Assembly: GCA_009781955.1 (NCBI GenBank)
Contig: WQUT01000074.1
Location: 1 to 40,273 of the forward strand
Length of the DNA: 40,273 bases
Source of the DNA: Pseudomonadota bacterium
GTDB lineage: Bacteria > Pseudomonadota > Alphaproteobacteria > Rs-D84
Direction: 5' to 3'
Shown in pieces: positions 1-36,254 of the stretch. A model generated the notes under the pieces. That model saw only the letters and a list, made by a program, of their open reading frames with translations, searched no databases and was not told the DNA's origin. How positions within the stretch are numbered: the first letter of the stretch is position 1; every line of letters begins with the position of its first letter. Made by a program: the position numbers and the translations under genes.

Positions 1-1360
1 CGCATTGGATGCAGATGTTCAGGTCCACGGACGCCACGCGTTCGGAAATCGCGCGCTTTTCATATTTGGACGTGCCGACGGGATATTCGCCGTATGCGAA
101 TGAGGGCTCCGTCGCGTGCCCCCCCTCTTGGGGGGGGCTATCACGCCGTAGCGATAGCGAAGGCGGACTGGGGGGGGCTACCTCCGAAAGACTATTTTTA
201 TTTGAAGAAGCCCCCCCTCGGCCACTACGTGGCCACTCCCCCCCTACGGGGGTGAGACGCGACGGAACAAATACCGACACAGGCAAGTCATCGCCGCGCA
301 TCGCCGCCATTTCGCCCAAAACCCCCGCAATCCGCGCCGGCGCGTCGGGCGTCATCGCCGGCGTCCAGTCGGGCGCAAAGCCCGATGGCGACGAAGGCAG
401 CGTGTATTCGTGCAGGAAATCCGCCGCGCGGTCAACCGCGGCCCAGTTTGCGGCGATAACCGCCTCGCCCTTTTTCTTGTACGTTTTTTCTATCGCCTCT
501 TTCGCCCGCGCCGCGACAATTTTCGGATCAATCACATGCGTCAGATTAAAGAAGTTCAGCATGATGAAAGTATTGATGCGACGCCCCAGGCCCAATTCTT
601 CCGCGCCGCGATTCGCATCCAGGAAAAAGACCCGCGCGCGCATACGTATCAAATGCTCTTGCACCGCGCGCGGCAGGTTGGAAAACGCGTCATTGGGACT
701 GCGCGATGTATTAATCATCACTGTCCCGCCGGGTTTGAGTCCCTTAAACACATCAAACCTTTGCGCGATCATAAAGGACGACACGCCGATAAAATCCGCG
801 TATTCCACCAGATATTGCGACCGTATTGGTTTCGGCGCAAAACGCAAATGCGACGCCGTCAAACCGCCGGATTTTTTAGAGTCATAGACCGCATAGCTTT
901 GCGGGTAAAGCTTGGAATTCTCGCCGACGATTTTCACGATGTTTTTCACCGCGCTGACCGTGCCGTCGGAACCGATGCCGTAAAGAATCGCGGATTTTCT
1001 TTGTTCCACCCCTGCCCTTGCGGCAGGGGTCGCCCGTGCGCTTTCTTGCGACGGGCGGGGGATGGGTTCATTGGTCAAATCATCTGAATCAATTTGATTA
1101 TTTTGACTGATTAAACCCACCCCCCGGCCCGCAAAATTGCGCGCCGCCCCCGCCGCAAGGGCGGGGGTAATATCCTCTATTCCAAACGCCGCGTCTGTCG
1201 GCAGCGATAGGCCCGTCACGTCGTCCGTAATGCCGACGGTAAAGTTATGGCGCAGGGTGCCGCGCATCATTCCTTCGGCAATCGCTTTCACATCGCGGGG
1301 CTTGAATTCCTTGCTGCCCAGTCCATACCGTCCGCCGAAAATATTTATCTTACTTGTCAT
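1..1360 (-). CDS. nifJ: pyruvate:ferredoxin/flavodoxin oxidoreductase (NifJ/YdbK type), C-terminal piece, runs off left edge
   Basis: Own minus-strand translation from ATG 1360 (gagg SD upstream): MTSKINIFGGRYGLGSKEF...ILYGIGSDGTVSAVKNIVKIVGE...YDSKKSGGLTASHLRF...GEYPVGTSKYEKRAISERVASVDLNICIQC. Open to position 1, which would explain its absence from the ORF track. GGRYGL, GxGSDGTV and CIQC are PFOR hallmarks. Confidence 0.85.
   Translation of the reverse strand, partial: MTSKINIFGGRYGLGSKEFKPRDVKAIAEGMMRGTLRHNFTVGITDDVTGLSLPTDAAFGIEDITPALAAGAARNFAGRGVGLISQNNQIDSDDLTNEPIPRPSQESARATPAARAGVEQRKSAILYGIGSDGTVSAVKNIVKIVGENSKLYPQSYAVYDSKKSGGLTASHLRFAPKPIRSQYLVEYADFIGVSSFMIAQRFDVFKGLKPGGTVMINTSRSPNDAFSNLPRAVQEHLIRMRARVFFLDANRGAEELGLGRRINTFIMLNFFNLTHVIDPKIVAARAKEAIEKTYKKKGEAVIAANWAAVDRAADFLHEYTLPSSPSGFAPDWTPAMTPDAPARIAGVLGEMAAMRGDDLPVSVFVPSRLTPVGGEWPRSGRGGASSNKNSLSEVAPPSPPSLSLRRDSPPQEGGHATEPSFAYGEYPVGTSKYEKRAISERVASVDLNICIQC
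119..256. repeat. C-run/G-run multi-hairpin palindromic element inserted in frame in PFOR
   Basis: ccccccctcttggggggggctatcacgc...ctcccccctacgggggtgag. Its 5' ~25 nt nearly match the polA insert at 24511. Translates without stops as RLTPVGGEWPRSGRGGASSNKNSLSEVAPPSPPSLSLRRDSPPPRGGH between the PFOR motifs PVSVF and GEYPVGT. 138 bp by my boundaries. Confidence 0.75.
1009..1167. repeat. second in-frame palindromic element in PFOR (domain II/III linker)
   Basis: Ends are hairpins cccctgcccttgcggcagggg and cccccgccgcaagggcggggg, with an AT-rich palindromic centre. Encodes ~53 extra residues (PALAAGAARNFAGRGVGLISQNNQIDSDDLTNEPIPRPSQESARATPAARAG) just before the ILYGIGSDGTV motif. 159 bp. Confidence 0.6.
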
Positions 1361-1433
1361 TTTATAACCTCTAATAATTCTGGTTGTTCATATCCCGTGT
1401 TACTTGTTTTTCATTTTAATATTCTCTTTCTCA

Positions 1434-1596
1434 GGACTACCCCGGATTTCCATCGGCAACAAGTTGCCGGGAAATCCGACCCTTCTGAGAAGGGTAATTG
1501 CGCGCTCATTTTGTTAAATTTTATGAGCGTTAAATTGCCCTTCTCAGAAGGGCCGGAAAGCTTAGCAACTTGTTGCTATAGCTTTCCGGGGTAGTC
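1434..1596. repeat. 163-bp nested palindrome, gactaccccgg family
   Basis: Termini ggactaccccgga / tccggggtagtc. Internal hairpins acccttctgagaagggt, gcccttctcagaagggc and an AT-rich centre. Related copies at 29300-29465 and 11048-11136. Confidence 0.85.
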
Positions 1597-1610
1597 GTAT
1601 TTTATTTCCT

Positions 1611-2441
1611 TTACTTATCCACATGAACGTCCAATTGCGGGAAGGGAAAGTGCAGTCCGCGTTTTGGAAACTCGTTATAAATTTTCTCCATGATGTCCGC
1701 CTGGCTGGATGCGTAATCGCCGAATCCCGTCCAATAGCGCAAAACGATATCCACCGAATTGGGCGAAAGATTTTTTACGAACACGACCGGCGCGGCAGGC
1801 TTGCTCAGCACGCGCTTGTCCGCGCCCAGGATTTCCAGCGACACCGCGCGCGCGGCGTTTATATCGTCGCCGTATCCGATATTGATGACCATGTCAACCC
1901 GGCGTTCCGGCTGGCGCGACAGGTTTATGATTTCCCCATTGGACAACGGGCCGTTCGGCAGGAATGCAATCTGTTCATCCCCCGTATGCAGCTCTGTCGT
2001 AAAAATCATAATCTTTGCGACTGTGCCCGTTTTGCCGCTTGCCGTCTGAATCGTATCGCCGACGACAAATGGCTTGAACAATAAGATGACGATGCCGCCG
2101 GCAAAATTCTGCAGCGTTCCCGACAAGGCCATGCCGACCGCCAATGACGCCGCGCCCAGAATCGCGACGATGGACGTCATCTGGATGCCGACGGTGGTCA
2201 GCACGATAATCACCACCATGATTTTCAGCGCGACGGAAACGAACGATGTAAAGAACGAGGTCAGCGACGGGTCAAGCCGGCGCGCGTCCATAATTTTCTT
2301 GAACGATTGGGCCAGGCGGTTCGCAATCCATATTCCGATCGCCAGAATCACGACGGCGGTCAGCAGCTTGATACCGTATTGCACCGCAATATCGGTCAGT
2401 GTTGTCAGTGTTCCGCCAAAATTAGAAACAGGTTCGTTCAT
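1611..2441 (-). CDS. mscS: small-conductance mechanosensitive channel MscS
   Basis: 276-aa ORF. Three N-terminal TM helices, then GTLQNFAGGIVILLFKPFVVGDTI and a beta-domain typical of the MscS family. Confidence 0.85.
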   Translation of the reverse strand: MNEPVSNFGGTLTTLTDIAVQYGIKLLTAVVILAIGIWIANRLAQSFKKIMDARRLDPSLTSFFTSFVSVALKIMVVIIVLTTVGIQMTSIVAILGAASLAVGMALSGTLQNFAGGIVILLFKPFVVGDTIQTASGKTGTVAKIMIFTTELHTGDEQIAFLPNGPLSNGEIINLSRQPERRVDMVINIGYGDDINAARAVSLEILGADKRVLSKPAAPVVFVKNLSPNSVDIVLRYWTGFGDYASSQADIMEKIYNEFPKRGLHFPFPQLDVHVDK

Positions 2442-2454
2442 GTGTTATCCTTTT

Positions 2455-4005
<1,551 letters not shown>

Positions 4006-5123: not shown

Positions 5124-5705
5124 CTAAAACAATCTTAAATCATAATCCGGCATGTCGTAACTCCACAGGCCCTGATACCCGCGGGTTGGAATCGGATCCG
5201 GCAGCACCCGCACATTCCCCAGTTTCCACGCATACCGCCCCGGTCGCCAATCGCCGAATGCGCGCTCTGTTTCCGTTTGCGCCGCGATGAATTCCGGCGT
5301 CATAAAAATGCAATCTTGCAGCTCGCAGACGCAGATTATTTTTCCATAGGTTTCAAAGAAATTCCCCTTCGCTTTAGCGAAGGGGTGGCAGTTTTGCGCC
5401 AGCAAAACTGACGGGGTAGTTGTTTTAATAATTCCGCGCGCTTTGCGCGCGGCTACTACCCCGCCCTCGCCATGTCCACCCCGCGCAATCTGCGATTGCG
5501 TGGGGGCCCCGGGCTCGGGCACCCCTTCACTAAAGTGAAGGGGAATTAATGTCTTTCCGCCGGCATCCATCGGGCGCAGGGACGCATGAATCGCCAGCAA
5601 TCCGCGGTGTTTGGTCGGCCAGCCGCGCGTCTCGTATTTTTTCAGCCCCGCGGCGATCGCGCCCGCCCACGGTTGCCACAATGTTAAAGTTTTCATTTCC
5701 ATCAA
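5124..5705 (-). CDS. ASCH domain protein carrying an in-frame palindromic insert
   Basis: N-terminus TLTLWQPWAGAIAAGLKKYETRGWPTKHRGLLAIHAS matches the ASCH signature. ~60 low-complexity residues in the middle come from the repeat at 5361-5546. Confidence 0.65.
   Translation of the reverse strand: MMEMKTLTLWQPWAGAIAAGLKKYETRGWPTKHRGLLAIHASLRPMDAGGKTLIPLHFSEGVPEPGAPTQSQIARGGHGEGGVVAARKARGIIKTTTPSVLLAQNCHPFAKAKGNFFETYGKIICVCELQDCIFMTPEFIAAQTETERAFGDWRPGRYAWKLGNVRVLPDPIPTRGYQGLWSYDMPDYDLRLF
5361..5546. repeat. AATTCCCC-ended nested palindromic element, in frame in the ASCH gene
   Basis: Ends attccccttcgctttagcgaagggg / ccccttcactaaagtgaaggggaat. Inner pair ggggtagt...actacccc flanks the hairpin cgcgcgctttgcgcgcg. 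Confidence 0.7.
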
Positions 5706-8285: not shown

Positions 8286-8374
8286 CTTGGCAATGCGCGA
8301 ATCTTAGCACGGGACGCGCCGCGGGGCAAGTGGAAATTCCCCCCCATAGGAGGAAGGCCACATTTGAACGGCCT

Positions 8375-8578
8375 AATTCCCCTCCCCAGGAGGGGTAGAT
8401 TTTATTAGCGGCGGCAGCCGCTTAGAAAATCTGGGGTGGGTTAGTTAAACAGAGAATAATGTTTATAAGTAGACACTATCAAAATTCCATGCGCCCACCC
8501 CGGAAAGCTAGGTCGTCCGTCTTTGCTTTGCAAAGCCGAGACTCCCGGCTTTCCTCCCCTCCTGCGGAGGGGAATTAC
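8375..8578. repeat. 204-bp composite palindromic element with AATTCCCCTCC hairpin ends
   Basis: aattcccctccccaggagggg ... cccctcctgcggaggggaatt. Inner modules agattttattagcggcggcagccgcttagaaaatct and cccacccc. The right end overlaps the envC-like stop codon. Confidence 0.75.
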
Positions 8579-14098: not shown

Positions 14099-14208
14099 TT
14101 TCCCGCCCCGATTTTGTAAGCGGCGATAAAAGCCGCTAGCAAAATCTACCCCGACCCCGGGGCCCCCGCGCGAACTTGTTCGCGTGGGGTGGGCCCAGGA
14201 GGGGAATC
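14097..14208. repeat. composite palindromic element
   Basis: gattttgtaagcggcgataaaagccgctagcaaaatc module, then ccccgaccccggggcccccgcgcgaacttgttcgcgtggggtggg, then ccaggaggggaatcc. Confidence 0.7.
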
Positions 14209-15266: not shown

Positions 15267-15902
15267 TCACCGCGTCGCGCGCAGGATTCCGTTGTCGTCC
15301 GTAACGGTCCAGCCCAAAGAGCGCAATGCGTTCACAAAGCCTTCGCGCCGCGCGGACGGTATTGTCGCGGAAATATTCCGGCCCTGCATGGTTTTCAGCT
15401 CCAGTTCGCTGTCCATGTCTGAATCGCGCAGTTTCTGCTTCAGGCCGGCCCATTGTTTCAGCCCGCCGATATTAAAGAATATTATGGCGCGGTCGCCTGA
15501 ATTGTCCGCCGCCGACATATAGTTCGGAACATTGTTGTCGCGCAGCCATTTCGCCGTCGCGTCCGGATCCAGTGTCATGGTGAAGTTCGCGGAATACGCG
15601 GTCGCGCTGGTCTTTTCATTATCTATGCCGGATGACGCGATCAGGCCGGTCATATCCGAATCGGACGCATTCTTTATCAGCATGGAAATTGTTTTCGGAT
15701 CGGAATACCGCGATAAGACCGCTATCGCAATCTGGCGGCGCGCATCGTCCGTCGCCAACGATTTCGCCGCCGCCGCGGTGCTTGCCGTCTTTTCAACCGA
15801 CGCGGTTCCCGTCAGATTCACCGCGGCATGCGCGTCGGCGAAAAGTGACAGAGTGACAAAGTGACAAAGTGACAAAATTATAAAAAATTTTCCGAATGTC
15901 AT
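15267..15902 (-). CDS. secreted protein of unknown function
   Basis: 211-aa ORF with signal peptide MTFGKFFIILSLCHFVTLSLFADAHAA. The hydrophobic core is encoded by the octamer array. Confidence 0.6.
   Translation of the reverse strand: MTFGKFFIILSLCHFVTLSLFADAHAAVNLTGTASVEKTASTAAAAKSLATDDARRQIAIAVLSRYSDPKTISMLIKNASDSDMTGLIASSGIDNEKTSATAYSANFTMTLDPDATAKWLRDNNVPNYMSAADNSGDRAIIFFNIGGLKQWAGLKQKLRDSDMDSELELKTMQGRNISATIPSARREGFVNALRSLGWTVTDDNGILRATR
15845..15877. repeat. octamer array (GTGACAAA)x4
   Basis: gtgacagagtgacaaagtgacaaagtgacaaa. The inverted partner lies at 16293-16324. Confidence 0.85.
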
Positions 15903-16002
15903 TTCAAAATACCAATTAGTTATTCATATTATTTTTTACAGTTTTTATTGATGAACACAAAATCCTGTTGATCTCTTGCCAGTCTTTATACATTGAATCA
16001 TA

Positions 16003-16274
16003 CTAAACCTGTGTTATAAAGCCAGCATTTTTTAACCTATCCAACCAATATTTTGTCTCTGCCAATTCTTTTTCAGAAATTTTAATTTCTGCATAAAGTC
16101 TCTGCCTGACGAGGCAAAATTTGCCTCTGACACATTTGCGCCGATGCTCATCCCCGAACGCAGAATCTGCTTGGAAATAATAAATTCTTTCTTTTGGGCG
16201 CGCAAGTAACTATATAACTTAACAACCCGGTCCGCAAACTTTTCGCTTTTATTTTTCAGCGGACTATCTTTCAT
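16003..16274 (-). pseudogene. four-helix-bundle protein (23S rRNA IVS / Avd-like family), frameshifted
   Basis: KFADRVVKLYSYLRAQKKEFIISKQILRSGMSIGANVSEANFASSGRDFMQKLK in one frame. The family-typical continuation ISEKELAETKYWLDRLKNAGFI is in the -1 frame, across a T4/A4 run at 16080-16083. Confidence 0.6.
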
Positions 16275-16292
16275 CTTGCCCCCCGTATATTC

Positions 16293-16324
16293 TGTCACTC
16301 TGTCACTTTGTAACTATGTCACTA
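16293..16324. repeat. octamer array, inverted partner of 15845-15877
   Basis: tgtcactctgtcactttgtaactatgtcacta. Confidence 0.8.
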
Positions 16325-16356
16325 AAATTCTGATTCTTTGCGCAAAGCGCAAAGAA

Positions 16357-17850
16357 TCAGAATTTTCCCATGATTCCCAATCTGATTCCCATAGAGCTGT
16401 AAATAGAGTTCACCTCGCTATTCGTGGCGCAGACCCAGCCCGGGCAGGATGCTTTCAGGTCTTGGATGGACGTCGCGATTTCCGCCGCCTGGGCCGCGGT
16501 GTATCCCATGTAATTGCCGTTCGCTATGTCGTTCAGGATTTGATCGTATAGCGTCCCATTGGGCCAGCCCGCGCCGTTTATGCTGTTCAGCCCGAATGAT
16601 TTCCCATTCAGGAATGTTTTGGCATTCGCGCCCGATACCGTATAGTAATCATACGTCAGCCCCATCTGCAACGAAACGCTGTTCGTAAGCGCCGTTGACC
16701 ACAGGGCCGCCAGCCCCAGGTGATACGCGCTGCCTAAACTTGCCGAGTCTTCCACGCTTTTCGGATGTTTCCAGTCCGGACGATATGGCTGGTCGCCGGC
16801 AGATGTATAGGACGGCAGCCCCAATTCCACGCGGCCGGACATCGCATTATTCTCGTTAATCGGATATTCCGCGTCCATCGCCAGATACGGGCCGCTCCAC
16901 GAAACGTCGTATTTGTGGCTGGTTCCCGGCTGCTGGTAATAATATGTGCCGCCGGTGTCAACTATGCCGCCGGTCGTAGAATACGGGGGGCCCCAAATCA
17001 CCTGGGGCGTTCCGCCCGGATTTTGAATGACTACGAACGGATCGCATTGAACCTCGTCGCTGCCGGGAACAGTTATGCAGTATCCGGTATCCAGCGACAT
17101 TCCGTAATTCTGGTTGACGGTCAGCGTATAGCTCAGCATGCGGTAACCCACGCTGGGCGTCAATTTAATCTTTCCAATCGCCAGCTTGTCCGTCAGCCCC
17201 AGCCCCGCGTTGAACCCCAGCATGTTGCCGCCCGAACTGGTCCCGACCGACAGCGCGTGCCCGTAAACATTCCCGATTGTCGCGCCGGTCGTGGAATCCA
17301 CATAGGTCGTTATCAAATACCCGCCGGCGGTGATGTCGTCGTCAACCATCCTGCTCTCGCCGGACTGCATCCCGTATTTGAATCCCGCGTCAATCTTTAG
17401 CCCGAACGCGGCGTTGCCGAACGCGTATCCGCCGTTCAGATCCAAAACATTCCAAGCCAGGTTGTCAAAGCCCAGCTTGCTGCCCGCGGTTTTTAGCGAA
17501 AATTCCCAATTGGCGAATTCGTGCGTAATCCCGCCGCCCAGATAAAATCCGGTCGTCTGATTCGGTCCCTTTGCACTTGGACGCGGCGCGGACGCGGCAT
17601 TTCCGGAATAATTATTCTGTCCGCCGACGGCGGCATACGGAACCTGGGCCGTTGTCGGACGCTGATACTGGCCGTAAGGATTGTAAGTATATGCGCCCGG
17701 GTTATAAGCGGTTGGCGACGCGCCGGTGTTGGAATACCGGACTTGGGGCGATTGATAGCCCCCGCCGGTATAGTATGTTCCGGCAGAAAAAGCCGGAACA
17801 GGCAGCAGGCAACAGGCAGCAGGCAGCAGGCATATTAGATATTTCTTCAT
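16357..17850 (-). CDS. outer-membrane beta-barrel protein (family not recognised)
   Basis: Signal peptide MKKYLICLLPAACCLLPVPAFSA, a Tyr/Gly/Pro-rich linker, alternating beta-strand pattern, and terminal ...GIRLGIMGKF. Confidence 0.7.
   Translation of the reverse strand: MKKYLICLLPAACCLLPVPAFSAGTYYTGGGYQSPQVRYSNTGASPTAYNPGAYTYNPYGQYQRPTTAQVPYAAVGGQNNYSGNAASAPRPSAKGPNQTTGFYLGGGITHEFANWEFSLKTAGSKLGFDNLAWNVLDLNGGYAFGNAAFGLKIDAGFKYGMQSGESRMVDDDITAGGYLITTYVDSTTGATIGNVYGHALSVGTSSGGNMLGFNAGLGLTDKLAIGKIKLTPSVGYRMLSYTLTVNQNYGMSLDTGYCITVPGSDEVQCDPFVVIQNPGGTPQVIWGPPYSTTGGIVDTGGTYYYQQPGTSHKYDVSWSGPYLAMDAEYPINENNAMSGRVELGLPSYTSAGDQPYRPDWKHPKSVEDSASLGSAYHLGLAALWSTALTNSVSLQMGLTYDYYTVSGANAKTFLNGKSFGLNSINGAGWPNGTLYDQILNDIANGNYMGYTAAQAAEIATSIQDLKASCPGWVCATNSEVNSIYSSMGIRLGIMGKF
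17801..17831. repeat. heptamer array (GGCAGCA)x4.5 inside the OMP signal-peptide codons
   Basis: ggcagcaggcaacaggcagcaggcagcaggc encodes LLPAACCLLP on the minus strand. Confidence 0.85.
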
Positions 17851-17931: not shown

Positions 17932-18016
17932 GGGGCTATGGCGAAACTGGTAGACGCGCTACCTTGAGGTGGTAGTGGAGCAATCCATAGGAGTTCAAAT
18001 CTCCTTAGCCCCACCA
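17932..18016 (+). tRNA. tRNA-Leu(GAG)
   Basis: Hand-folded cloverleaf: acceptor ggggcta/tagcccc, anticodon arm ctacc-ttGAGgt-ggtag, long variable arm, T arm aggag-ttcaaat-ctcct, encoded CCA. Confidence 0.9.
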
Positions 18017-18115: not shown

Positions 18116-18189
18116 CAAACTGGTAGACGCGCTACCTTGAGGTGGTAGTGGAGAAATCCATAGGAGTTCAAATCTCCTTAGCCCCACCA
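18116..18189 (+). pseudogene. duplicated 3' three-quarters of tRNA-Leu lacking the 5' acceptor strand
   Basis: aaactggtagacgcgctaccttgaggtggtagtggagaaatccataggagttcaaatctccttagccccacca, 1 mismatch to the gene 100 bp upstream. No ggggcta 5' strand. Confidence 0.8.
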
Positions 18190-18313
18190 CCGTTTTTGTC
18201 CGAACGAAGTGAGGAATACAAAAACGAGTGTCTCGCCGTAGTCCGAAGGACGGAGGCGGACAAGTAAAGTTCGTAAAGCATCCACCAGGGCGCGGCGCCA
18301 TAATTAAAACTTA

Positions 18314-18919
18314 TTACAACTCTCCCGTCTTGAACTCGTCATAACCCTCGTAATAATAGCTGACATCTATTCCTTTCATAAACACTCCGCGGTCATTGAT
18401 TTTGCCGGTCAGCGCATTTTTTAACAAATGCTTTATTTCCGTATCTTTCACGGGACTGCGCGCCATCGCGGAAAGATAATCGTTTTTATCAACCCGATTC
18501 CAATCCACGACTTTTTTCAACTCTTTTTTCAAAATCAAGTCCAGCCAGATTCGCATCGCGCGGCCGTTGCCTTCGCGGAATGGATGCGCGATGTTCATTT
18601 CAATATACTTTTCAATAATTTCATCAAAAGTATTCTGGGGCATTTTATCAATATGCTTCAGCGATTGCGGCAGATACATCAACGGCGCGAAACGAAATCC
18701 TCCCTTTGCGATATTCACATCGCGAATCTTGCCGGCGAAATCATAAATATCGCCGAAAAGAAATCCGTGTATCCGGGCAAGGCCCGAAAATGTTCCAACC
18801 CGCAGCTTATCAATATGGCCGCTATCAAAAAGCAACTGCGCTTGCTTTTTGCTGATTTGTTCTTCCGCGCGGTTCAATTCAACCTGGCCGGTGATCCCAA
18901 GCTTGTTTTTCAAAACCAT
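18314..18919 (-). CDS. fic: Fic family AMPylase, class III (C-terminal inhibitory helix)
   Basis: Fic motif HPFREGNGRAMR. C-terminal SYYYEG fits the (S/T)xxxE(G/N) alpha-inh motif. 201 aa. Confidence 0.85.
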   Translation of the reverse strand: MVLKNKLGITGQVELNRAEEQISKKQAQLLFDSGHIDKLRVGTFSGLARIHGFLFGDIYDFAGKIRDVNIAKGGFRFAPLMYLPQSLKHIDKMPQNTFDEIIEKYIEMNIAHPFREGNGRAMRIWLDLILKKELKKVVDWNRVDKNDYLSAMARSPVKDTEIKHLLKNALTGKINDRGVFMKGIDVSYYYEGYDEFKTGEL

Positions 18920-18977
18920 TTAGCACCCTTTTAGTCTAATAAATTATACCAAGCTTATTGTAAAAGTCCAGTTATTA

Positions 18978-19010
18978 CCAGCCACCAGCACTAGCCACCA
19001 GCCACCAGCA
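18978..19010. repeat. heptamer array (CCAGCCA)-type
   Basis: ccagccaccagcactagccaccagccaccagca, between fic and the giant ORF. The same unit occurs inside polA at 24101. Confidence 0.8.
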
Positions 19011-19069: not shown

Positions 19070-22000
19070 ATGAGGAAACTCTTTTCCATTTTTGCCGCCG
19101 TTGTCATCGCGTGCGCTTGCCCGCGCGCGCATGCGGACGATTCGGAGACAGAGGTAGCGCGCGCCGGCCGGCCCGGCGTTGCGGCGCCAATATCGGCGGC
19201 CCCGGCGCAATCCGCCGCAACCGCAGCGCAGCAACGCGGCCCGGCGCCCGCATCCAACCGCGCAACGCCCGCCGGCGCGGTCGTCGCGCCGACGGCGCCA
19301 AGCGCGCGGGGGGCCGCCACGCGCGAACCAACGCCAGAGGCGACGCGCACGGCGGCGCCGGGCCAATCGCAAATCTCGCCGGGGGCCGGGCCCGCGCCGA
19401 ACGTCCGCGCCGCCGCCACCCCGCGAGAGGTCGCGGCCCGCGCGGCCCCTGAATCCGCGCGAACCGCCGTCGCGCGCCCATCCGTCGCCGGCAATCAATT
19501 GCCAAATGCCCCAGTCAGAAACCAAGACGAAGGCTGGCTCGCCGCCCATGGCCCCGGCGAACGGTGGTCGCAGATTTCCCGCGCGGGCATAGCCCCACAA
19601 ATAGACACTAATCGCCAGTCGCCGGCCGCCAGCCGCCAGTCGCCAATCGCCCGTTCCGTAATGCGCGCGGCCGCGGCGCCGGGCATCGCGCCAAAGTCTG
19701 TCCGCGCGGCGATAACCCAGATCACCGGCGGCGACGGAAATCTGAACGATTACCAGCTGTGCCGCGATACTTACTTTCAATGCATGGACGAATTCTGCGC
19801 GAACAAGGACAGCCAGCTGCGCCGCTGCGCATGTTCAAAACGCATGCATGATTTTGACAAGGCGCAAAAAAACATGGATAAATTCCAAAACAAAATGCTG
19901 GATTTTAACCAAAGGCTGCTGACCGTCAGCATGGACAAGGAAGACGCGACCGCATCCATCAAGGCGACCGAGGGCGAGACGGCATTCCAGGCCGGCGATA
20001 CGTCGCCTTCGCAGCAAATCCTGGATACCATAATGGGCAAGCTGAAGTCCACCAACGCCGACAACAAGGATACTCATTCCCTGGCCATGATAACCTTGTC
20101 GCTGGACACCAGCACCGTGTTTGACACCATTGACTATACGTTGGGCGCGACGACCGCGACCAAGGAAGGCGACGCCCTGTTCCGCGCCGCGCTGCCCGTA
20201 TGCAAGGAAATAGCGGCCGAGATATGCGCCCCGGACGATATTTCCATCGCGCAGTCCGCATACGAAATGGCGATAGAGCAAGACTGCAACACCGCGCAAA
20301 AGGCGTATGAAAGCCTGCAGGATTCCGCGCTGCAGAAAGTGCGCGAGGGCAACGCCCTGCTGGACATGTCGCGGCTGCAGAATTACCAGGACCGCAATGC
20401 GGACGATACGTTGACCTGCAAGAAAAAGATGCTGGACATGCTGGCCAACGACGCGGTGTGCGGCGCCGATTTGGGCAAATGTCTGGACTGGTCCGGAAAA
20501 TACATTGATCCGTCAACCGGCACGGCCATACTCACCAGCAACCTTTCCAATCTGGCCAACATGCTGGTGCCGCCCAACAACGACCCCGCCGGCGCGAACA
20601 AATGGGTCAAGGTCAAGGAAAACTCCGGATTCGTAAAATTCCTGAACGCAAAGAAAAAATACATCTCGCCCGCGATGGACAGCTGCGAGAAAATTTCCGA
20701 CATGGTCTGGAACGGGTTTATGGAAGACGCGCTGGCCCAGATAAAAATCGCCCAAACCAGAAAGCTGGAGGATATGCGGCAAAGCTGCACCACCATCACC
20801 ACGACATGCCTGGCCGGAATGGCGCAGTCTTTGACCGATTTTGACACGCGCGCGCTGTCGGTGTTCGGCGTGAACGCCGATCGCACGGTGAACCAGATGT
20901 GCGCCCAGGTCAGGACCGCGTGCGACGGACTGATGGCGGCCACCGGCGGCGCGGGGGGGACCGACTGGCAGACCGGCATGACCGAAATCGCCCGCGACAA
21001 GACGTTTGACCAGATCATAAAGACCTGCATCCAGGTCGGGCAAAACTGCATCGTTCAGAACTGCACGTCCGCGGCCGGAAATTTCGGGCTGTGCAATTTC
21101 ATACAAGATTATCCGACGTCCATCAACAGAAACAAAGTGCTGACCGGAACCATATGCTTTAACGACGTGGTGTCGTGCGTGAATGACGCGAATCTTGCCG
21201 ACGACGTTCTGAACGCTATGCGCGGCGCGTGGTATGGGGCCGCGGCATTCGCCACGCCGGGCGGCAGCAATCTGTGCACCGCGGGCGTGGCAAACATGAA
21301 CACCTGCCTGCTGGCGCAATACATCTGGGGCGGATGCAACAGCGCCCCCCAGAACGCGGGCGCGGAAATACTGGTCAACGCAATCATAACCGATTCCACC
21401 AGGGCCAAATACAGCACCATAATGGCATGGTTCGGGACAAACACCCACAAAGATTGCTATGCCGCGAATTGCCCAAAGGATTGGGGCGGCAGCGTAACCG
21501 GATGCGATCCGTCTTACAGCGGGCCGCCCAGCCCCGTAACGGAATGCCCGGCCAACAAGAAATTTGCGGTTGCATCCGGTTTGACCAACTGCTGCGATTC
21601 CGGCGCGTTTGACAGCTTTGGAAACTGCTGTCCCAGCGGCGGCGTGAAATACGTGCCGGTTGACGTCACCGATACCGGCGCGGCGGATTTCTTCCGCGTT
21701 CCCGGAACATCGCCGAATTATAACGCCAACACGCTGAGCTCTGGTTCCAAGGGTTCCGGATGGGGATTTGGGGCCAATCAAACCGCCTATTCTATCGTGT
21801 GCTCTGGCCCCAGCCTGCAATTCATCGCAAAGTTCACGTCCAGCGGCGGCAACAGCCCGATATACCTGTTCTGTTCCTCTAGCGGCGGCACCGGCAAGAT
21901 GAGCGGAACGTATGCGACCGGCGGGAACGCGACCTGCAGCGGGAGATTCCTGGCCATCAATGCGGCCCGGGGGACATATTCCGCGCCGGTGTATACCCCG

Positions 22001-22208: not shown

Positions 22209-22814
22209 TCATAAGTTTATCGCGGCGATGGCCCCAAGAACCTTTTTCAATTCTTCGGGTGAAAATCGGCCCAAGACCCAGTCGGTGGGATCAATGGGCG
22301 ACCCGGCATCGCGCGGATGGCCGACGCCGATGCGAATGCGCCGGTAATCGGGGCCGACCGCGGCGTCTATGCTGCGAATTCCATTATGGCCCGCGCTGCC
22401 CCCGCCGGTTTTTTGCCGCATTTCGCCGACACGGATATCCATATCGTCGTGAATTACAATCAAATTTTCCAGCGGGATTTTATAGTATTTCATCAATGCC
22501 GCCACCGCCGCGCCGGAATTGTTCATAAATGTCAGCGGCTTTGCAAAAATCGTTGGCCGTTGGTCGTTGGTCGTTGGTCGGTGGTCGTTGGTCGGTGGTC
22601 GGTGGTCGGTGGTCGGTGGTCGGTGGTCGGTGGTCGGTGGTCGGTGGGTGATTTTTGTGACAATCGCATCCTTTTCTTTTTTCCAAACCGCGTCCGCGCC
22701 CGCCAGCACATCAACCGCGATAAAGCCGGCGTTATGCCGGGTAGTCGCGTATTCGGCCCCCGGATTCCCCAGGCCGACAACCAATAATGGAGGCGATGCA
22801 TTCATACCCGTCAT
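22209..22814 (-). CDS. pth: peptidyl-tRNA hydrolase carrying an in-frame heptamer-array insert
   Basis: LLVVGLGNPGAEYATTRHNAGF..., KPLTFMNNSG, GGGSAGHNGIRS, RIRIGVGHP. A 32-aa HRPPTTD repeat lies between them. Confidence 0.9.
   Translation of the reverse strand: MTGMNASPPLLVVGLGNPGAEYATTRHNAGFIAVDVLAGADAVWKKEKDAIVTKITHRPPTTDHRPPTTDHRPPTNDHRPTTNDQRPTIFAKPLTFMNNSGAAVAALMKYYKIPLENLIVIHDDMDIRVGEMRQKTGGGSAGHNGIRSIDAAVGPDYRRIRIGVGHPRDAGSPIDPTDWVLGRFSPEELKKVLGAIAAINL
22551..22648. repeat. heptamer array CG(G/T)TGGT x14
   Basis: cgttggccgttggtcgttggt...cggtggtcggtggtcggtggg. Read on the minus strand it gives 7-aa periodicity: THRPPTTDHRPPTTDHRPPTNDHRPTTNDQRPT. Confidence 0.9.
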
Positions 22815-22902: not shown

Positions 22903-25830
22903 ATGCCCCAGCATCTGACCCTTATTGACGGGAATTCCATTTTATTCCGCGCCTATTACGGCGTGCATTCGCACTTGACGCGAACCGACGGAACGCCGGT
23001 CAATGCGGTGTATGGATTCTGCAACATGATACTGCCGCTGGTCGCCGCCGCGAAGCCGCACGAAATTTTCATATGCGTGTTTGACGCAGGCAGGCGGACT
23101 TTCCGCAATGACATTTATCCGGAATACAAGGCCAACCGCGCGGAAACGCCCGCCGATCTGGCCGCGCAGTTTGAGCTTTCGCGCGAAGCGGTGCGCGCGT
23201 TCGGAATCCCCCTGCTGGTCATTGACGGCGTAGAGGCCGACGACGTCATCGCGACCCTTTGCAATCACGAATGCGCGCTGAACCGCCAGACGCGGGTGGT
23301 GACGGGCGACAAAGACCTTATGCAGTTGGTCTCGCATTGCGTATTTCTGTATGACGGGATGAAGGAAAAAGAAATCCGCGCGCCCGAGGTATTGGAAAAA
23401 TTCGGGGTCCGGCCCGACCAGGTTATTGACGTTCAATCCCTGATGGGCGACTCGTCCGACAATGTGCCGGGCGTTCCCGGAATCGGGCCAAAGACCGCGA
23501 CAGAATTGATTCAGGAATTCGGATCGTTGGACAACCTGTATAAAAATGTAAATGAGATAAGCAAAGAGCGCATCAGAAAACTATTAAACGAGAATCGGGA
23601 CAAGGCCGAAATCTCGCGAAAACTGGTGACGCTGAAATCCGATGTGAAATTGCCGAAATTTTCGGACGAGCCGATGAAATTTGACGCCGACGGCGCGCTG
23701 GCTTTTGCCCGCGATAAATTGGAATCGCCGGCGCTGGCGGCAAAGATACGGAAACTGTTCGGGAATGCGGGGACCAATCAAGATTCCGATGAGGTTCCAC
23801 ACCCGCGGGCAGAGCCCGCCCTGCGGGAAAACAAGGAAAGCGAATCGGCGGCGCATCAGTTATTGAAACATAATAGCTCGCATTCTTCGGTTATTACGGC
23901 AGAGAACGAGCTGGACGAGTTTCTGTCGCATGTTGACGACGTTCTGGCCATTGACACCGAAACAACCGGGCTGAATCAGATGACCGACAAACTCGTCGGA
24001 ATATCGCTGGCCGTCGCGCCCGATCGCGGCGTATACATTCCATTGCGGCACAAAGAACAAGAGGCCGCGACCGATTTATTCAGTGCGGAAAGTGCGACCA
24101 CCAGCCACCAGCCACCAGCCGCCAAGCTTTCGCTTGACGCGGTCAAGCGAAAGCTTTGGCCGATTTTCAAAAAGGCGCATGTCGTAAAGGTCGGGCACAA
24201 CCTGAAATACGATCTGCACATATTTGAAAACGAAGGCTGGGATACATCCGAAATCGCGCCGATTGACGATACCATGCTGTTATCCTATATCCTGTATGGC
24301 GCCGCGCATACTCATGGTTTGGACGAGCTGGCGCATCTGTATCTGGGGCACGAAAATATAAAGTTTGATTCGCTGTTCCCGCCCAAGACCAAGGATTCCG
24401 ACAAGCGCTTTGCCGAAATCGCGGTCGCGTCCGCGGCGCCATATGCGGCCGAAGACGCGTGGGTGACATACGCGCTGTATAAAATATTCCGGGAAACATT
24501 GGAAAATTTGCCCCCCCTCTTGGGGGGGGCTGTCACGCATAGCGTGACTGGGGGGGGCTCTGACAATGAAGTCAGCTCCCCCTCGTCGCCTTCGGCGACA
24601 CTCCCCCCCAAGAGGGGGGAGAAAGACCGCTCTCTGCTCGCTCTTTACGAAAACTGCGACCGGCCGCTGTTGCGGATACTGATGCAGATGGAGCGCGCGG
24701 GCGTTCTGATAGACCAATCAAGTTTGCGCGAACTGTCCGACGTCCTGCATAAAAAGTCCGACGAGATTCAGGAACAGATTTGGAAAGCCGCGCATTTCAA
24801 ATTTAATATCGGCAGCCCGAAGCAGCTGGCGGAAATACTGTATGAAAAACTGGGCGTTCCCGCGCCGAAAACTAATTCAACCGATGCGGCGACGTTGGGC
24901 GACCTGGCCGATGCGCATCCCATAATCAACATGATCCTGGAATGGCGGTCATTAACGAAACTGTCGGGAACTTACGCGGACGCATTGCCGCGTCAGATCG
25001 GCCGCGACGGACGAATCCACACCACGTTTTTGCAGACCAGCACCAATACCGGGCGGCTTTCTTCGCGCGATCCGAACCTGCAAAACATTCCGATAAAAAC
25101 CGATTTGGGCGCGCAGATCCGCAAATGCTTTGTCGCGCCGGACGGCCGCGTTTTAATCTCGGCGGATTACTCGCAAATACAGTTGCGGTTGATGGCGCAT
25201 ATCGCGGACGTAAAGATTCTGAAAGAAATCTTTACAAATGGAGAGGATATTCATTCCATGACCGCGCGGCGCATATTCGCGCTGGCCCCGCATGCGACCG
25301 TGACCAAGGACCAGCGGCATGCGGCCAAGACCGTGAACTTTTCCATCATTTACGGCATATCGCCGTTCGGGCTGGGCAACCAATTGGGCATTTCGCAATC
25401 GGATGCGAAAAAGCTGATAGACTCTTACATGGCCAATTTCCCGGAAATTGACGCATACATAGAAAAAACGAAAAAATTCGCGATTGCGAACGGATTCGTT
25501 TTGACGCCCTGGGGCCGGCGCATAGAATTGCCGGAAATACGAAATCCGCGGATGCGCGCCTATGCCCTCCGCGCCGCGATCAACGCGCCGATACAGGGTT
25601 TTGAGGCCGACCTGATGCGATTCGCGATGGTTAAAATCGGCGGGCAATTGGAACCGCATTCCGACCAGATAAAAATGCTGCTGCAGGTGCACGACGAACT
25701 GGTGTTTGAATGCGATGAAAAGCACGCGGAATATTGGGCGGAAAAGATAAAGCATGAAATGGAAAACGTGGCGAAGCTTTCCGTGCCCATCGCCGCGGAA
25801 ACCAAGATTGGAAAATCGTGGGACAAGTAA
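22903..25830 (+). CDS. polA: DNA polymerase I
   Basis: Start MPQHLTLIDGNSILFRAYYG (the track's 22519 start is an antisense-of-pth artefact). 5' nuclease, 3'-5' exo (AIDTETTGL), pol motifs ADYSQIQLRLMAH, RHAAKTVNFSIIYG, LLQVHDELVFE. Confidence 0.92.
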   Translation: MPQHLTLIDGNSILFRAYYGVHSHLTRTDGTPVNAVYGFCNMILPLVAAAKPHEIFICVFDAGRRTFRNDIYPEYKANRAETPADLAAQFELSREAVRAFGIPLLVIDGVEADDVIATLCNHECALNRQTRVVTGDKDLMQLVSHCVFLYDGMKEKEIRAPEVLEKFGVRPDQVIDVQSLMGDSSDNVPGVPGIGPKTATELIQEFGSLDNLYKNVNEISKERIRKLLNENRDKAEISRKLVTLKSDVKLPKFSDEPMKFDADGALAFARDKLESPALAAKIRKLFGNAGTNQDSDEVPHPRAEPALRENKESESAAHQLLKHNSSHSSVITAENELDEFLSHVDDVLAIDTETTGLNQMTDKLVGISLAVAPDRGVYIPLRHKEQEAATDLFSAESATTSHQPPAAKLSLDAVKRKLWPIFKKAHVVKVGHNLKYDLHIFENEGWDTSEIAPIDDTMLLSYILYGAAHTHGLDELAHLYLGHENIKFDSLFPPKTKDSDKRFAEIAVASAAPYAAEDAWVTYALYKIFRETLENLPPLLGGAVTHSVTGGGSDNEVSSPSSPSATLPPKRGEKDRSLLALYENCDRPLLRILMQMERAGVLIDQSSLRELSDVLHKKSDEIQEQIWKAAHFKFNIGSPKQLAEILYEKLGVPAPKTNSTDAATLGDLADAHPIINMILEWRSLTKLSGTYADALPRQIGRDGRIHTTFLQTSTNTGRLSSRDPNLQNIPIKTDLGAQIRKCFVAPDGRVLISADYSQIQLRLMAHIADVKILKEIFTNGEDIHSMTARRIFALAPHATVTKDQRHAAKTVNFSIIYGISPFGLGNQLGISQSDAKKLIDSYMANFPEIDAYIEKTKKFAIANGFVLTPWGRRIELPEIRNPRMRAYALRAAINAPIQGFEADLMRFAMVKIGGQLEPHSDQIKMLLQVHDELVFECDEKHAEYWAEKIKHEMENVAKLSVPIAAETKIGKSWDK
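24101..24123. repeat. heptamer array (CCAGCCA)x3, in frame in the polA exo domain
   Basis: ccagccaccagccaccagccgcc encodes SHQPPAA in a loop before LSLDAVKRKLWP. Confidence 0.8.
24511..24621. repeat. C-run/G-run multi-hairpin element, in frame in polA
   Basis: ccccccctcttggggggggctgtcacgcatagcgtgactggggggggc...ctcccccccaagaggggggag. 111 bp encoding PPLLGGAVTHSVTGGGSDNEVSSPSSPSATLPPKRGE at the exo/polymerase junction. Confidence 0.8.
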
Positions 25831-25832
25831 CT

Positions 25833-26036
25833 TTTCCCCCTTGTTAAAAGGGGAATCGCGCTTGACGAGCGCGAGCCTGGTTTTGGCGATGCGCGAGTTT
25901 AGCGCAATAGGGGGATTATTGGTTAAAGAACGAATACTTGTTCTTTAACCAATAATCCCCCTATTTTTGTAACGCAAATGCTTGTGCATTTGCTAACAAA
26001 AATTCCCCCTCTAACGAGGGGGAAAATTTTTATCTC
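25833..26036. repeat. ~200-bp composite palindromic element in the polA-dsbA spacer
   Basis: ttcccccttgttaaaaggggaat ... perfect 25-bp-arm palindrome at 25907-25964 ... aattccccctctaacgagggggaaaatt. Confidence 0.8.
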
Positions 26037-26952: not shown

Positions 26953-27077
26953 ATGGCAAATGAAAAATGGTAAATTTATAGCATATTGCCCAAAATGCGC
27001 AGATATTTCACACTTTGTATCTCTTGCCCCTTCCATCTTCCATTTCCCATTTACCATTTACCATTTACCCTTTCACC
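26953..27077. repeat. inverted pair of heptamer arrays (ATTTACC-type) overlapping the recO stop codon
   Basis: Left atggcaaatgaaaaatggtaaat (26953-26975). Right ccatcttccatttcccatttaccatttaccatttaccctttcacc (27033-27077). Confidence 0.75.
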
Positions 27078-28333
27078 TGCTGCCGCGCATGGGGCAGCGC
27101 GCGGCCGCCCTGGTCCTGGGCTATCTTGTTCAAGAAATATTTTGTGGCGTCCAAATCAACGGGCAGTTCAAAAAGCCGCCCGTCATACGGCGCGGCGCAA
27201 GTTCTGCATACGGCGCGGCCGGTCCGCGGGGACAGATGGGTCAAATTATCCGTCCGACCGCAATTGCTGCACCGCGACAAATCCAGCGCATAGCCCAATT
27301 CCCGCAGCAGCCATATTTCCCAGTCAAGATATAACCGATGGATATCTTCTTTATAAAAGCCATCCTGTCCCCCCACCGGCCCGCAACCATGCGCGCCGAC
27401 TCCCCCCAAGGGGGGAGTAGTTAAATGCTCATTTAACTCGCTTGTTATGAGTGCTGAATTACTCCCCCCTTGGGGGGAGTCGCAGAGCGCAAGCGTTGTT
27501 TCCGCGCCGCGCGATGCGGTGGGGGGACAAAGATATTCGTGTATTACACGCAATACCCCGTCCATATCTTTGAAAACTTGCCTGTTATCAAATCTTATAA
27601 TTCTATACCCATCGCCATTTAATATTTTAGTCCTTTCTACATCATGCATACGGTTGCCTTCTTCGTAATGCTGTTCGCCATCCAATTCTATTATCAGCCT
27701 TTTTTCCAAGCATACAAAGTCTGCAATATATTTGTTTATCGGGCACTGTTTTCTAAAAGCATACCCCATCTTGTTATCTTTCAAATAATGCCAAAGTAAC
27801 TTCTCGGCCGATGTCATGTTCTTTCGCAAGTTCTGAGCCTGATGCAAAGCAAGTTCAGTGTTTCTTTTTTCGGGGTTATGTTGTCCCCCCACCGGCCCGC
27901 AACTACGCGCGCCTACTCCCCCCAAGGGGGGAGTAGTTGCCTCATTTCCAAATTTTAAAAAGTGATTTCCGATTTTGTCCAACAAATCAATCGTTCTGTC
28001 ATACAAAAATGTATACTTTTCCCGTTCCGGCAGCAGCGCGTGTATCAGCGCGAACGCCGAATTAACTATGGCGAGCGTCTCTGCGTCGTTCATCAGCGGC
28101 GCGGCCATGTTGCGCGACGATTCCCAATGAAACGCGCCCAGGGCGGAATCCAGCCGCGCATTCCAAGACGCCGCGCCAACCTGTCCGACCAATGGCCGGT
28201 TTTTCTTTGCGACCGCCGCGCCCTTCATCATGCCGGCGAGCATGCCGAATTCGCGCGTAAAGATATGCGCGACCATGTCGCGTTCCCCGAACGGGCGCAA
28301 TCCGATAATAATGCCGGCTGATTCCAGTTTCAT
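27065..28333 (-). CDS. recO: DNA repair protein RecO interrupted in frame by a 191-codon DUF559 element
   Basis: N part MKLESAGIIIGLRPFGERDMVAHIFT... (~135 aa). C part ...DIHRLYLDWEIWLLRELGYALDLSRCSNCGRTDNLTHLSPRTGRAVCRTC (Zn finger). Together they give normal RecO length. One continuous ORF. Confidence 0.85.
   Translation of the reverse strand: MKLESAGIIIGLRPFGERDMVAHIFTREFGMLAGMMKGAAVAKKNRPLVGQVGAASWNARLDSALGAFHWESSRNMAAPLMNDAETLAIVNSAFALIHALLPEREKYTFLYDRTIDLLDKIGNHFLKFGNEATTPPLGGVGARSCGPVGGQHNPEKRNTELALHQAQNLRKNMTSAEKLLWHYLKDNKMGYAFRKQCPINKYIADFVCLEKRLIIELDGEQHYEEGNRMHDVERTKILNGDGYRIIRFDNRQVFKDMDGVLRVIHEYLCPPTASRGAETTLALCDSPQGGSNSALITSELNEHLTTPPLGGVGAHGCGPVGGQDGFYKEDIHRLYLDWEIWLLRELGYALDLSRCSNCGRTDNLTHLSPRTGRAVCRTCAAPYDGRLFELPVDLDATKYFLNKIAQDQGGRALPHARQQVKG
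27365..27937 (-). mobile_element. DUF559-ORF element plus an extra hairpin unit, in frame within recO
   Basis: Inverted ends 27461-27530 and 27881-27937 share actccccccttggggggagt...ggtggggggacaa. A third 57-nt unit (27365-27421) is a direct repeat of 27881-27937. AT-rich core encodes LLWHYLKDNKMGYAFRKQCPINKYIADFVCLEKRLIIELDGEQH. Confidence 0.85.
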
Positions 28334-28389
28334 GGTTAAATTATAAAACATAAAGGATAAAGCATAAAGCAGAAATATCAGATGCAACA

Positions 28390-28548
28390 AAAAATCCGGC
28401 CCCCGGGCCCCGACAAAATCGCAGATTTTGGTGGGTGGCCCATGCCGGATTTTTTAACCTGTCCCGAAAATCTAAGGCAGCATCCGCCTTCGCCAAGGCT
28501 GCGGCGGACAAGAGCTGCCAAGATTTTTCCCTTCTGCGAAGGGGAATT
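28390..28548. repeat. composite palindromic element between recO and rplI
   Basis: aaaaatccggc...gccggatttttt enclosing ccccgacaaaatcgcagattttggtgggtgg. Ends cccttctgcgaaggggaatt. Confidence 0.7.
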
Positions 28549-29249: not shown

Positions 29250-29299
29250 TTTATCTGTCCTCTTTTGAGTTAGGGATGATTCCCAAAATTTATATTTAT

Positions 29300-29465: not shown

Positions 29466-29469
29466 ACTA

Positions 29470-36245: not shown

Positions 36246-36254
36246 TTGGTGTGT

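Follow-up and report, generated by a model that had tools for sequence, protein, structure and literature searches.

A gene-free palindromic element with the end modules of DUF559 nuclease genes, a candidate non-autonomous member of a mobile family

In the window (the whole stretch of DNA that was analysed, 40,273 nucleotides of contig WQUT01000074.1 from the alphaproteobacterial assembly GCA_009781955.1), a strongly palindromic intergenic element without an open reading frame (ORF) lies at 8375-8576, at the junction between an M23 peptidase gene and ctpA. We found that both ends of this ORF-less element carry the structured module that also bounds a DUF559 nuclease gene elsewhere in the window and DUF559 genes in many other genomes. 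That the ORF-less and the DUF559-carrying elements form one family is strongly supported by the matches to an externally trained model of the module, by the flanks of DUF559 genes, by the bimodal sizes of the interiors and by a solo hairpin in a close relative. We consider it somewhat probable that the element is a gene-free member, similar to a miniature inverted-repeat transposable element (MITE), of a palindromic family whose DUF559 nuclease acts on the hairpin ends and spreads copies. The role of DUF559 as the mover of the ORF-less copies is one that we infer from sequence. The element itself is probably without host function.

The end module and the anatomy of the element

Each member is bounded by two modules in inverted orientation, and DUF559 is the single protein that the gene-carrying members encode. 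The terminal module measures about 45 nt and consists of AATT, an invariant palindrome of 17 bp (CCCCTCC-N3-GGAGGGG, the first hairpin or hp1), a T, a second hairpin (hp2) and a G-rich box (the G-box, GGGGTGG). While hp1 is essentially invariant, the sequence of hp2 is free and its pairing is kept: double changes were observed in three of the four outer pairs, in 62 cells, a value reached in none of 500 shuffles and with slid controls scoring far lower. A GNA triloop is present in 75 of the 109 unique hp2 copies from the modules of loci L002-L082 (GAA in 56, GCA in 12, GTA in 5 and GGA in 2), always on the G-rich strand that runs inward from the element tip, and the common form GGCAGGC-GAA-GCCTGAC retains a G.A mismatch. 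Sequences of the type d(C-GNA-G) are said to form exceptionally stable DNA mini-hairpins (work of Hirao, Yoshizawa and colleagues in the 1990s); a GNA-looped hp2 would favour a single-stranded DNA state, with an RNA state being compatible as well.

The ORF-less element spans 202 nt when measured from AATT to AATT (8375-8576) and 204 nt (8374-8577) when the palindrome is taken as TAATT...AATTA. The initial annotation had described the hairpins as we find them and had put the end, at 8578, one to two nt too far. The left terminal module (8374-8442, plus strand) comprises AATT (8375-78), hp1 (CCCCTCC-CCA-GGAGGGG, 8379-95), T (8396), an hp2 of 36 nt (AGATTTT..AGCGGC-GGCA-GCCGCT..AAAATCT, 8397-8432) and the G-box GGGGTGGG (8433-40). 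It is followed by an AT-rich core of about 52 nt (8441-8493) with no ORF. The right terminal module is inverted (8492-8577, minus strand) and comprises the box CCCACCCC (8494-8501), an hp2' of 53 nt with nested hairpins and the stem GGAAAGC/GCTTTCC (8502-8554) and the tip (8555-8576), made up of T (8555), hp1' (CCCCTCC-TGC-GGAGGGG, 8556-72) and AATT (8573-76). On the minus strand, the M23 peptidase gene stops at a TAA codon (8577-8575) that overlaps the terminal TAATT; the opposite end of the element lies upstream of ctpA. A decayed third copy of hp1 (AAATT-CCCCCCC-ATA-GGAGGAAGG) is found just outside the element (8334-8357, plus strand).

Specificity of the shared ends

Four matches to CCCCTCC-N2-6-GGAGGGG were counted in the window, against 0.01 expected, and none of 100 dinucleotide shuffles reached four. 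The four exact hp1 hairpins are the two ends of the ORF-less element and the two ends (3491-3507 and 3929-3945) of a DUF559 element in the PFOR gene, in line with the initial proposal that the ORF-less element is bounded by the same type of hairpin as the terminal inverted repeat of the PFOR element. The octamer AATTCCCC alone was not significant in the window (8 found, 3.0 expected).

A covariance model of 47 positions, R1, was built from 65 modules that flank DUF559 genes in other genomes, none of them taken from the window, and was used for an unfiltered search of the window. R1 matches both ends of the ORF-less element in inverted orientation and over its full length (model positions 1-47), with 38.9 bits (E 7.7e-10) for the left end (8374-8442, plus strand) and 34.4 bits (E 2.1e-8) for the right end (8492-8577, minus strand). 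Other full-length matches were obtained for the ends of the PFOR element (3897-3950, minus strand, E 5.7e-13; 3486-3539, plus strand, E 7.1e-13), for the ends of an insert in an ASCH-domain gene (5359-5422, plus strand, E 4e-9; 5453-5548, minus strand, E 6.7e-7), which had been recognized as related before, and for a composite of modules (1532-1597, plus strand, E 3.4e-5; 1434-1500, minus strand, E 6e-4). An insert in polA (24505-24559, plus strand) also matched over the full length at E 0.34, weakly for this class-1 model, and a weaker composite of modules facing outwards (29299-29466) gave E 0.027 and 0.77. Not all of the sites that had initially been listed with these ends belong there: 14193-14207, 25833-25856 and 26011-26036 gave no R1 match at E<=10, and for 28529-28548 hp1 was matched (28528-28544, E 0.93) with the remainder of the module unmatched. 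The likeness is that of a class-specific, three-part module and not of generic G/C runs; as class-specific end modules are common to ORF-carrying and ORF-less elements, both within the window and across genomes, the idea of one modular system is upheld.

DUF559 genes in other genomes

A scan that started from DUF559, with one genome per species, gave 80 loci, spread over Alphaproteobacteria, Bacteroidota, Cyanobacteria, Desulfobacterota, Spirochaetota, Bacillota, candidate phyla and others. For the 70 loci with complete flanks, which represent more than ten phyla, hp1 was found on at least one side of the gene in 58 and on both sides in 42. Most of the exact hairpins (136 of 178 in 1.24 Mb) lie at most 250 nt from the DUF559 ORF, and the density of full modules is about 2.6 per kb in the DUF559 flanks versus 0.029 per kb beyond 1 kb, an enrichment of about 90-fold. 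The consensus order is AAATT-CCCCTCC-NNN-GGAGGGG-TG[hp2]-GGGGTGGT in the left half, then DUF559, and ACCACCCC-[hp2']-CA-CCCCTCC-NNN-GGAGGGG-AATT in the right half. For instance, in locus L002, from a different organism, the DUF559 gene is flanked by ATTCCCCTCC-GTC-GGAGGGGT-GCCGCACGTAAGTGCGGT-GGGGAGGGT and an inverted copy thereof, and an ORF-less solo module is located 1.3 kb from the gene. Relatives of the PFOR-type DUF559 protein (58-71% identity) frequently have C-terminal tails of the form ...KPSPS..TPPxEGN, which represent the translated hairpin. A plasmid search with the DUF559 protein returned only relatives of at most 45% identity.

A second class of modules (class 2; CCCCTTC.../GGGGTAGT) flanks another DUF559 subclade, and in a neighbour-joining tree of the DUF559 proteins both the class-2 and the 'CTCCCC' modules cluster with particular subclades. 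The nearest neighbour was again a class-2 protein for 8 of the 11 class-2 proteins, with class 2 making up 17% of the set (label permutation 72/2000). DUF559 subclades track the module class, with moderate support because the DUF559 protein is short. We also observed that the same site in orthologous genes is occupied by DUF559 elements in different genomes, namely in hsdR and at the 3' end of the gene flanking L034/L043.

Modules were also seen away from complete elements. The left module (42 nt, 14 codons) is found in Bacteroidota and other phyla as single copies or as tandem arrays of two to three, always in frame and in the same orientation as the type I (hsdR/hsdM) and type ISP restriction-modification genes that carry it (L012 5248-5480, 8579-8700, 9841-9967, 11135-11220 and 11861-11945; L140 2629-6666), and is translated into repeats such as NSPPLEGWLKAGVV. 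In a Pseudomonadales hsdS gene (L037 8060-9800) pairs of a right and a left module are present at each boundary between two target-recognition domains, with a DUF559 element downstream; here the modules could promote the shuffling of specificity domains. HsdR ORFs with an in-frame DUF559 (L017 8909-12670 and L012 8483-12889) carry in addition a GIY-YIG nuclease domain, likewise in frame and placed between HSDR_N and DUF559. No G/C-rich hairpin modules were found around the GIY-YIG insert in those ORFs, implying that the modules are not general to in-frame nuclease inserts.

Two size classes of elements

A complementary, hairpin-first sample was obtained by scanning metagenome contigs for the pattern AATT-hp1-TG, which gave at least 120 stretches (637 kb). 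Among the matches listed (120 stretches) there are 232 modules, with DUF559 in 14 loci. About 20 adjacent left-right module pairs among these matches enclose 12-121 nt with no ORF, and six pairs enclose 358-526 nt and encode DUF559 in all six cases; the few wider gaps between modules hold ordinary host genes with separate inserts. The element at 8375-8576 belongs to the class with a short interior. Such a bimodal distribution of interior sizes is what is expected for a family with autonomous and non-autonomous members. ORF-less elements with similar cores form subfamilies (L127, L173, L180 and L204, again among the matches listed). In viral contigs the module was present in only 12 stretches of 2.9 million contigs, indicating that it is not a phage feature.

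The M23-ctpA site in relatives

In locus L083, where the ortholog of the M23 peptidase is 86% identical, the stop codon is followed by a single hairpin, TAATT-CCCCTCC-GCA-GGAGGGG-AATTTCCACTTGCCCCGC. The hairpin, GCA loop included, and AATTTCCACTTGCCCCGC are both present in the window, where about 217 extra nt (8339-8555) separate the two; the extra segment ends in the decayed third hp1 and has hp1' at its other boundary. As the difference is bounded by hp1 copies, it could have arisen either by insertion beside a solo hairpin or by deletion of the sequence between two hairpins. The gene downstream of the hairpin in L083 differs from that in the window. L083 has the solo hairpin instead of a clean empty site, and in the relatives with 62% identity, which are too diverged to define boundaries, no hairpin was found at this site.

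Related elements in the window

The window contains two DUF559 genes, 37% identical to each other. The first is part of the PFOR element (3486-3950, minus strand), which lies within the 5' end of the PFOR (POR_N) gene; the modules at the two ends of the element (3486-3539 and 3897-3950) form a perfect inverted repeat of 51 nt with the order ATT-hp1-T-hp2 (GTCGCGC-CGGTATC-GCGCGAC)-GGGGAGGGT. The DUF559 ORF (3541-3894; PF04480, E 1.2e-25) reads through its own inverted repeat, in frame, into PFOR, and the original start of PFOR is separated by a TAA in the element end. A repeat search revealed a perfect 25-nt direct repeat of host PFOR coding sequence on both sides of the element (3462-3486 and 3953-3977). 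The nifJ-type PFOR itself appears split (window 1-3894, minus strand; L001 15989-19843): POR_N and PFOR_II end at 2455, and POR, EKR and Fer4 are in a separate ORF off the left end of the window. Between the PFOR parts we found an MscS channel gene (1611-2441) and an ORF of 158 aa, beside the palindromic composites 1008-1170 and 1434-1597. The latter was identified with R1 and consists of two class-2-like modules that face outwards (right, then left).

The second DUF559 gene (PF04480, E 1.3e-33) belongs to an element that is inserted in frame in recO (27366-27938, minus strand). The modules of this element follow the usual order of hp1, hp2 and box but differ in sequence (hp1 ACTCCCCCC-NN-GGGGGGAGT, at 27399-27418, 27461-27480 and 27913-27936; box GGTGGGGGGAC), and an extra solo left module gives rise to a 57-nt direct repeat (27366-27422 / 27882-27938). 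The recO gene (27065-28390, minus strand) is a continuous ORF of 441 aa in which the complete DUF559 domain (residues 183-286) is situated between RecO_N and RecO_C, flanked by translated hairpin modules (TTPPLGGVGA...) and then by the extra solo module.

Two ORF-less inserts were found within genes. The polA insert (24505-24624, plus strand) is in frame and has the architecture of hp1, hp2 (GTCGCC-GAA-GGCGAC) and box, with CTCCCCCC-CAAGA-GGGGGGAG as its right hp1 (hairpin 24601-24621). The 8-nt stem CTCCCCCC/GGGGGGAG is common to the recO element and the polA insert, so that the resemblance between their hairpins that was noted at first is real. The ASCH insert (5359-5548; 5360-5547 when bounded by AATT) is of class 2, is in frame in the ASCH-domain gene and has AATT-CCCCTTCGCT.../...GAAGGGG-AATT as hp1 and GGGGTAGT as box. 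The ORFs of ASCH, polA and recO are continuous through the inserts. The intergenic region between polA and dsbA (25906-25965) contains a perfect palindrome with a 26-bp stem and an 8-nt loop, in a run of 200 nt with unrelated hairpins that do not match R1.

The DUF559 protein and a possible mechanism

The DUF559 protein of the window retains all residues that are invariant in its clade, including D52, E63, D65 and H69, and matches PF04480 and the uncharacterised structure PDB 3HRL. The Vsr-type catalytic domain with its conserved acidic and histidine residues is thus present in the ORF-bearing members and absent from the ORF-less element itself. VSR, DUF559 and DUF2726 form one Pfam/COG group with the same fold family (PMC3424549), and the EDxHD homing endonuclease I-Bth0305I acts as a homodimer on a pseudopalindrome of 14 bp centred on the cut site (PMC3239194). 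Given this precedent, the invariant palindrome of hp1 (17-25 bp) is a natural candidate for the recognition site. In the mechanism that we propose the DUF559 nuclease, probably as a dimer, would recognise hp1, possibly with hp2 extruded as a hairpin, and is predicted to nick or cut there. Repair of the break templated on another copy, or re-joining of the ends, would then copy anything between two hp1 sites. ORF-less elements, solo 42-nt modules and tandem arrays could be spread in trans in this way, and the same process would account for the shuffled hp2 hairpins.

The resulting picture resembles that of MITEs with autonomous insertion sequence (IS) partners, such as the Correia elements and Nezha (reviewed in PMC10969869), in that short ORF-less elements with inverted repeats, in or beside genes, share their termini with a rarer ORF-bearing form. 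There are clear differences as well: the partner here is a Vsr-like PD-(D/E)XK nuclease of about 120 aa and not a DDE, serine or HUH transposase, the ends are structured three-part modules instead of plain inverted repeats, a target duplication of fixed length is absent, and half-elements (the 42-nt solo modules) and tandem arrays are common.

The Rickettsia palindromic elements (RPE), which were reportedly described by Ogata et al. in 2000, are similar as in-frame, translated insertions in protein-coding genes. This likeness concerns the ASCH, polA and recO inserts, the element at 8375-8576 being intergenic. We know of no enzyme gene associated with RPEs, and the present family spans many phyla; RPEs were compared by description only.

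Several observations weigh against the proposal that DUF559 moves the element. The hp2 hairpins in 8375-8576 are unusually long (36 and 53 nt, versus 11-17 usually), and they share the stem GGAAAGC/GCTTTCC with the class-2 composites 1532-1597 and 29400-29466, suggesting recombination among modules rather than simple transposition. A local alignment of the 52-nt core and both hp2 hairpins with the interiors of the DUF559 elements in the window was no better than that of shuffles, so that a recent derivation by internal deletion is not demonstrated. No second copy of the core or of hp2 was found in the sequences compared, including the 40 kb of this genome. The flanks of 8375-8576 show no target duplication of fixed length (TA, TAA or AATT): a possible TA dinucleotide at 8373-74 and 8577-78 is indistinguishable from the palindromic TAATT...AATTA ends, and the AATT found at either end belongs to the palindrome itself. 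Duplications of host sequence at DUF559 elements are variable, with 25 nt in the window and about 24-60 nt in L006, L007, L015, L016, L034 and L043. Moreover, the association is drawn from loci of 20 kb and from short metagenome contigs, PD-(D/E)XK nucleases are to our knowledge not known for strand transfer, and no paper on DUF559 activity was found in the full-text literature.

Alternative explanations

The most serious alternative reverses the direction of events, and we regard it as rather unlikely. The palindromic ORF-less elements would be older, DUF559 would be a free-standing homing endonuclease gene whose product recognises and cuts their pseudo-palindromic centre (GGGGTGGT-core-ACCACCCC) and which is copied in by repair, and 8375-8576 would be an unoccupied target. 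This would fit the behaviour of I-Bth0305I on its 14-bp pseudopalindrome (PMC3239194), the invariably central position of DUF559 between two boxes, the lack of any DUF559 remnant in the ORF-less cores and the fact that orthologous genes from different genomes (hsdR and the gene flanking L034/L043) carry DUF559 elements at the same site. On this reading, however, no agent would account for how ORF-less elements, solo modules and tandem arrays spread, and the modules are kept on both sides after occupation. In addition, the outer hp1 and not the central junction is the best-conserved part, and core lengths of 12-121 nt are a poor fit to a fixed homing site. The known EDxHD homing endonucleases (I-Bth0305I; PMC3239194, PMC2677866) share with the DUF559 elements the catalytic fold family, a selfish lifestyle and the occupation of the same site in orthologous genes, and their action as a dimer on a pseudo-palindrome is a precedent for the proposed recognition of hp1. 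Unlike the elements described here, they reside in group I introns or between split inteins, have extra DNA-binding domains and lack terminal inverted repeats and ORF-less derivatives. Their target is also destroyed on insertion; the elements described here retain the palindrome at both ends. An Rfam scan revealed no intron or intein features at these elements.

It is improbable that the modules are repeats like the repetitive extragenic palindromes (REPs) or REPINs, moved by a REP-associated tyrosine transposase (RAYT) or another host enzyme with DUF559 as a mere passenger. RAYTs are established mobilisers of hairpin repeats, the boxes of class 2 contain GTAG, and the window does encode a RAYT that the initial annotation had missed (35766-36245; NF047646, 86.5 bits versus a cut-off of 80), which lies between two 100% identical double-hairpin repeats of 68 nt (35667-35734 and 36254-36321) bounded by TGGTGGGG/CCCCACCA. 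These repeats (GGCGACTTTG-TCC-CAAAGTCGCC and GGCAGGTTTG-AGGA-CAAACCTGCC) are found only beside the RAYT gene, with no other copy in the window, and are not matched by R1; no RAYT homolog was found in about 200 other module-bearing loci (about 1.9 Mb), and the gene that co-localises with the modules across phyla is DUF559. The GTAG of class 2 is located 3' of the hairpin, opposite in polarity to that of REPs, and class 1 is without GTAG. The different repeats and the absence from module-bearing loci argue against the RAYT as the main mobiliser. The two systems are nevertheless alike in having many dispersed hairpins, one small enzyme gene between inverted repeat copies and a repeat that co-evolves with the enzyme clade, and the GNA-looped hairpin with its strand polarity hints at a single-stranded intermediate in both. 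They differ in the enzyme (HUH Y1 versus Vsr-like), in the 5' GTAG or CGTC tag, which is missing here, in the repeats of the window RAYT and in the frequent in-frame position of the DUF559-type elements inside genes.

A regulatory or structural feature of the host, such as a terminator, an mRNA stabiliser between the M23 peptidase gene and ctpA or a structured small RNA, is in our view slightly less probable still. The single-stranded DNA fold of the element region is indeed very stable (-59.4 kcal/mol, z -9.65), the element is positioned exactly at a gene end, and its core has one weak promoter-like site. Yet modules are also found in frame in coding regions, as tandem arrays and in either orientation, across unrelated genes and phyla, and the feature is absent from the relatives with 62% identity and reduced to a single hairpin in the relative with 86%. 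A terminator is rejected, as the hairpin is not followed by a run of T residues when read on the coding (minus) strand.

For a structured RNA, the nearest match is whalefall-1 (RF01762), a motif that is known only from a metagenome and that has been taken to be a non-coding RNA (Weinberg et al. 2010, PMC2864571). It has a comparable order of hairpin 1 (UCUCUCC..GGAGAGA), a short linker, hairpin 2 and a G-rich tail (AGGGUGAGG), and differs in having no link to DUF559 or mobile DNA. The match at 8376-8442 (20.4 bits, E 0.0057 in 351 nt) remains under the gathering score of 37, and the canonical modules of L012 were not matched; in the Rfam scan, tRNAs alone reached the gathering score. Instead of being a small RNA, whalefall-1 may represent a variant form of these DNA modules.

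Finally, chance likeness in a window rich in G/C palindromes (88 perfect hairpins with stems of at least 7 bp, and no significant enrichment of AATTCCCC alone) has a negligible probability and is effectively refuted by the hp1 counts, by the full-length R1 matches at both ends and by the same architecture adjoining DUF559 in dozens of unrelated genomes.

Other repeats and cassettes in the window

A 'four helix bundle' gene (16032-16298) of the 23S rRNA intervening-sequence protein family (TIGR02436) is bracketed by inverted AAAGTGAC/GTGACAA arrays (15844-15888 and 16287-16323), followed by a perfect hairpin with a 20-bp stem (16324-16366). The region 15842-16366 has the appearance of a further cassette in which repeats bound a small gene, although its type is different.

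We also found five tandem arrays of heptanucleotides with 4.9-14 copies (17799-17832, 18977-19009, 19612-19651, 22550-22647 and 27040-27073), several of them at or inside gene ends; the largest, (TCGTTGG)14, lies in a 5' extension of the polA ORF. Since a unit of 7 nt shifts the reading frame with copy number, these arrays could be contingency loci. A tRNA-Leu(GAG) gene (17932-18016) has a 91% identical duplicate of its 3' part and flank (18117-18205) just upstream of a Fic-family gene (18314-18919), which looks like the scar of an element that integrated at the tRNA.

Implications for the DUF559 family

DUF559 (PF04480) is a very large family, the members of which are mostly annotated only as 'endonuclease domain-containing protein'. 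The present data offer it a candidate substrate (AATT-CCCCTCC-N3-GGAGGGG with the adjoining hairpin and G-box) and a context, that of a selfish element with abundant gene-free derivatives. No prior link of DUF559 or Vsr-like nucleases to palindromes, MITEs or inverted or hairpin repeats was found in the full-text literature, with subscription journals outside its coverage, and this family of small selfish elements is apparently undescribed. For annotation, the finding means that the fused ORFs DUF559-PFOR and recO-DUF559 are insertions and not new domain architectures.

A wider proposition, which we put forward tentatively and with more doubt than confidence, is that DUF559 is the engine of a new cross-phylum class of nuclease-only mobile elements, in which a dimeric Vsr-like nuclease would cut the palindrome at the ends of its own gene and repair or re-joining would spread the gene, its derivatives and solo modules. 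If true, this would provide a function for a Pfam family with very many members and a new mobility mechanism, distinct from those of DDE and HUH enzymes, serine/tyrosine recombinases and intron/intein homing, with many copies landing in frame inside essential and restriction-modification genes. DUF559 genes were found enriched among predicted inversion targets (PMC9881135), which fits their inverted-repeat flanks. If the link between the nuclease and the modules is functional, it would explain the inverted repeats around DUF559 genes, the G/P-rich peptide tails and 14-residue repeats inside restriction-modification and housekeeping proteins, and possibly the origin of a class of 'structured RNA' motifs known from metagenomes.

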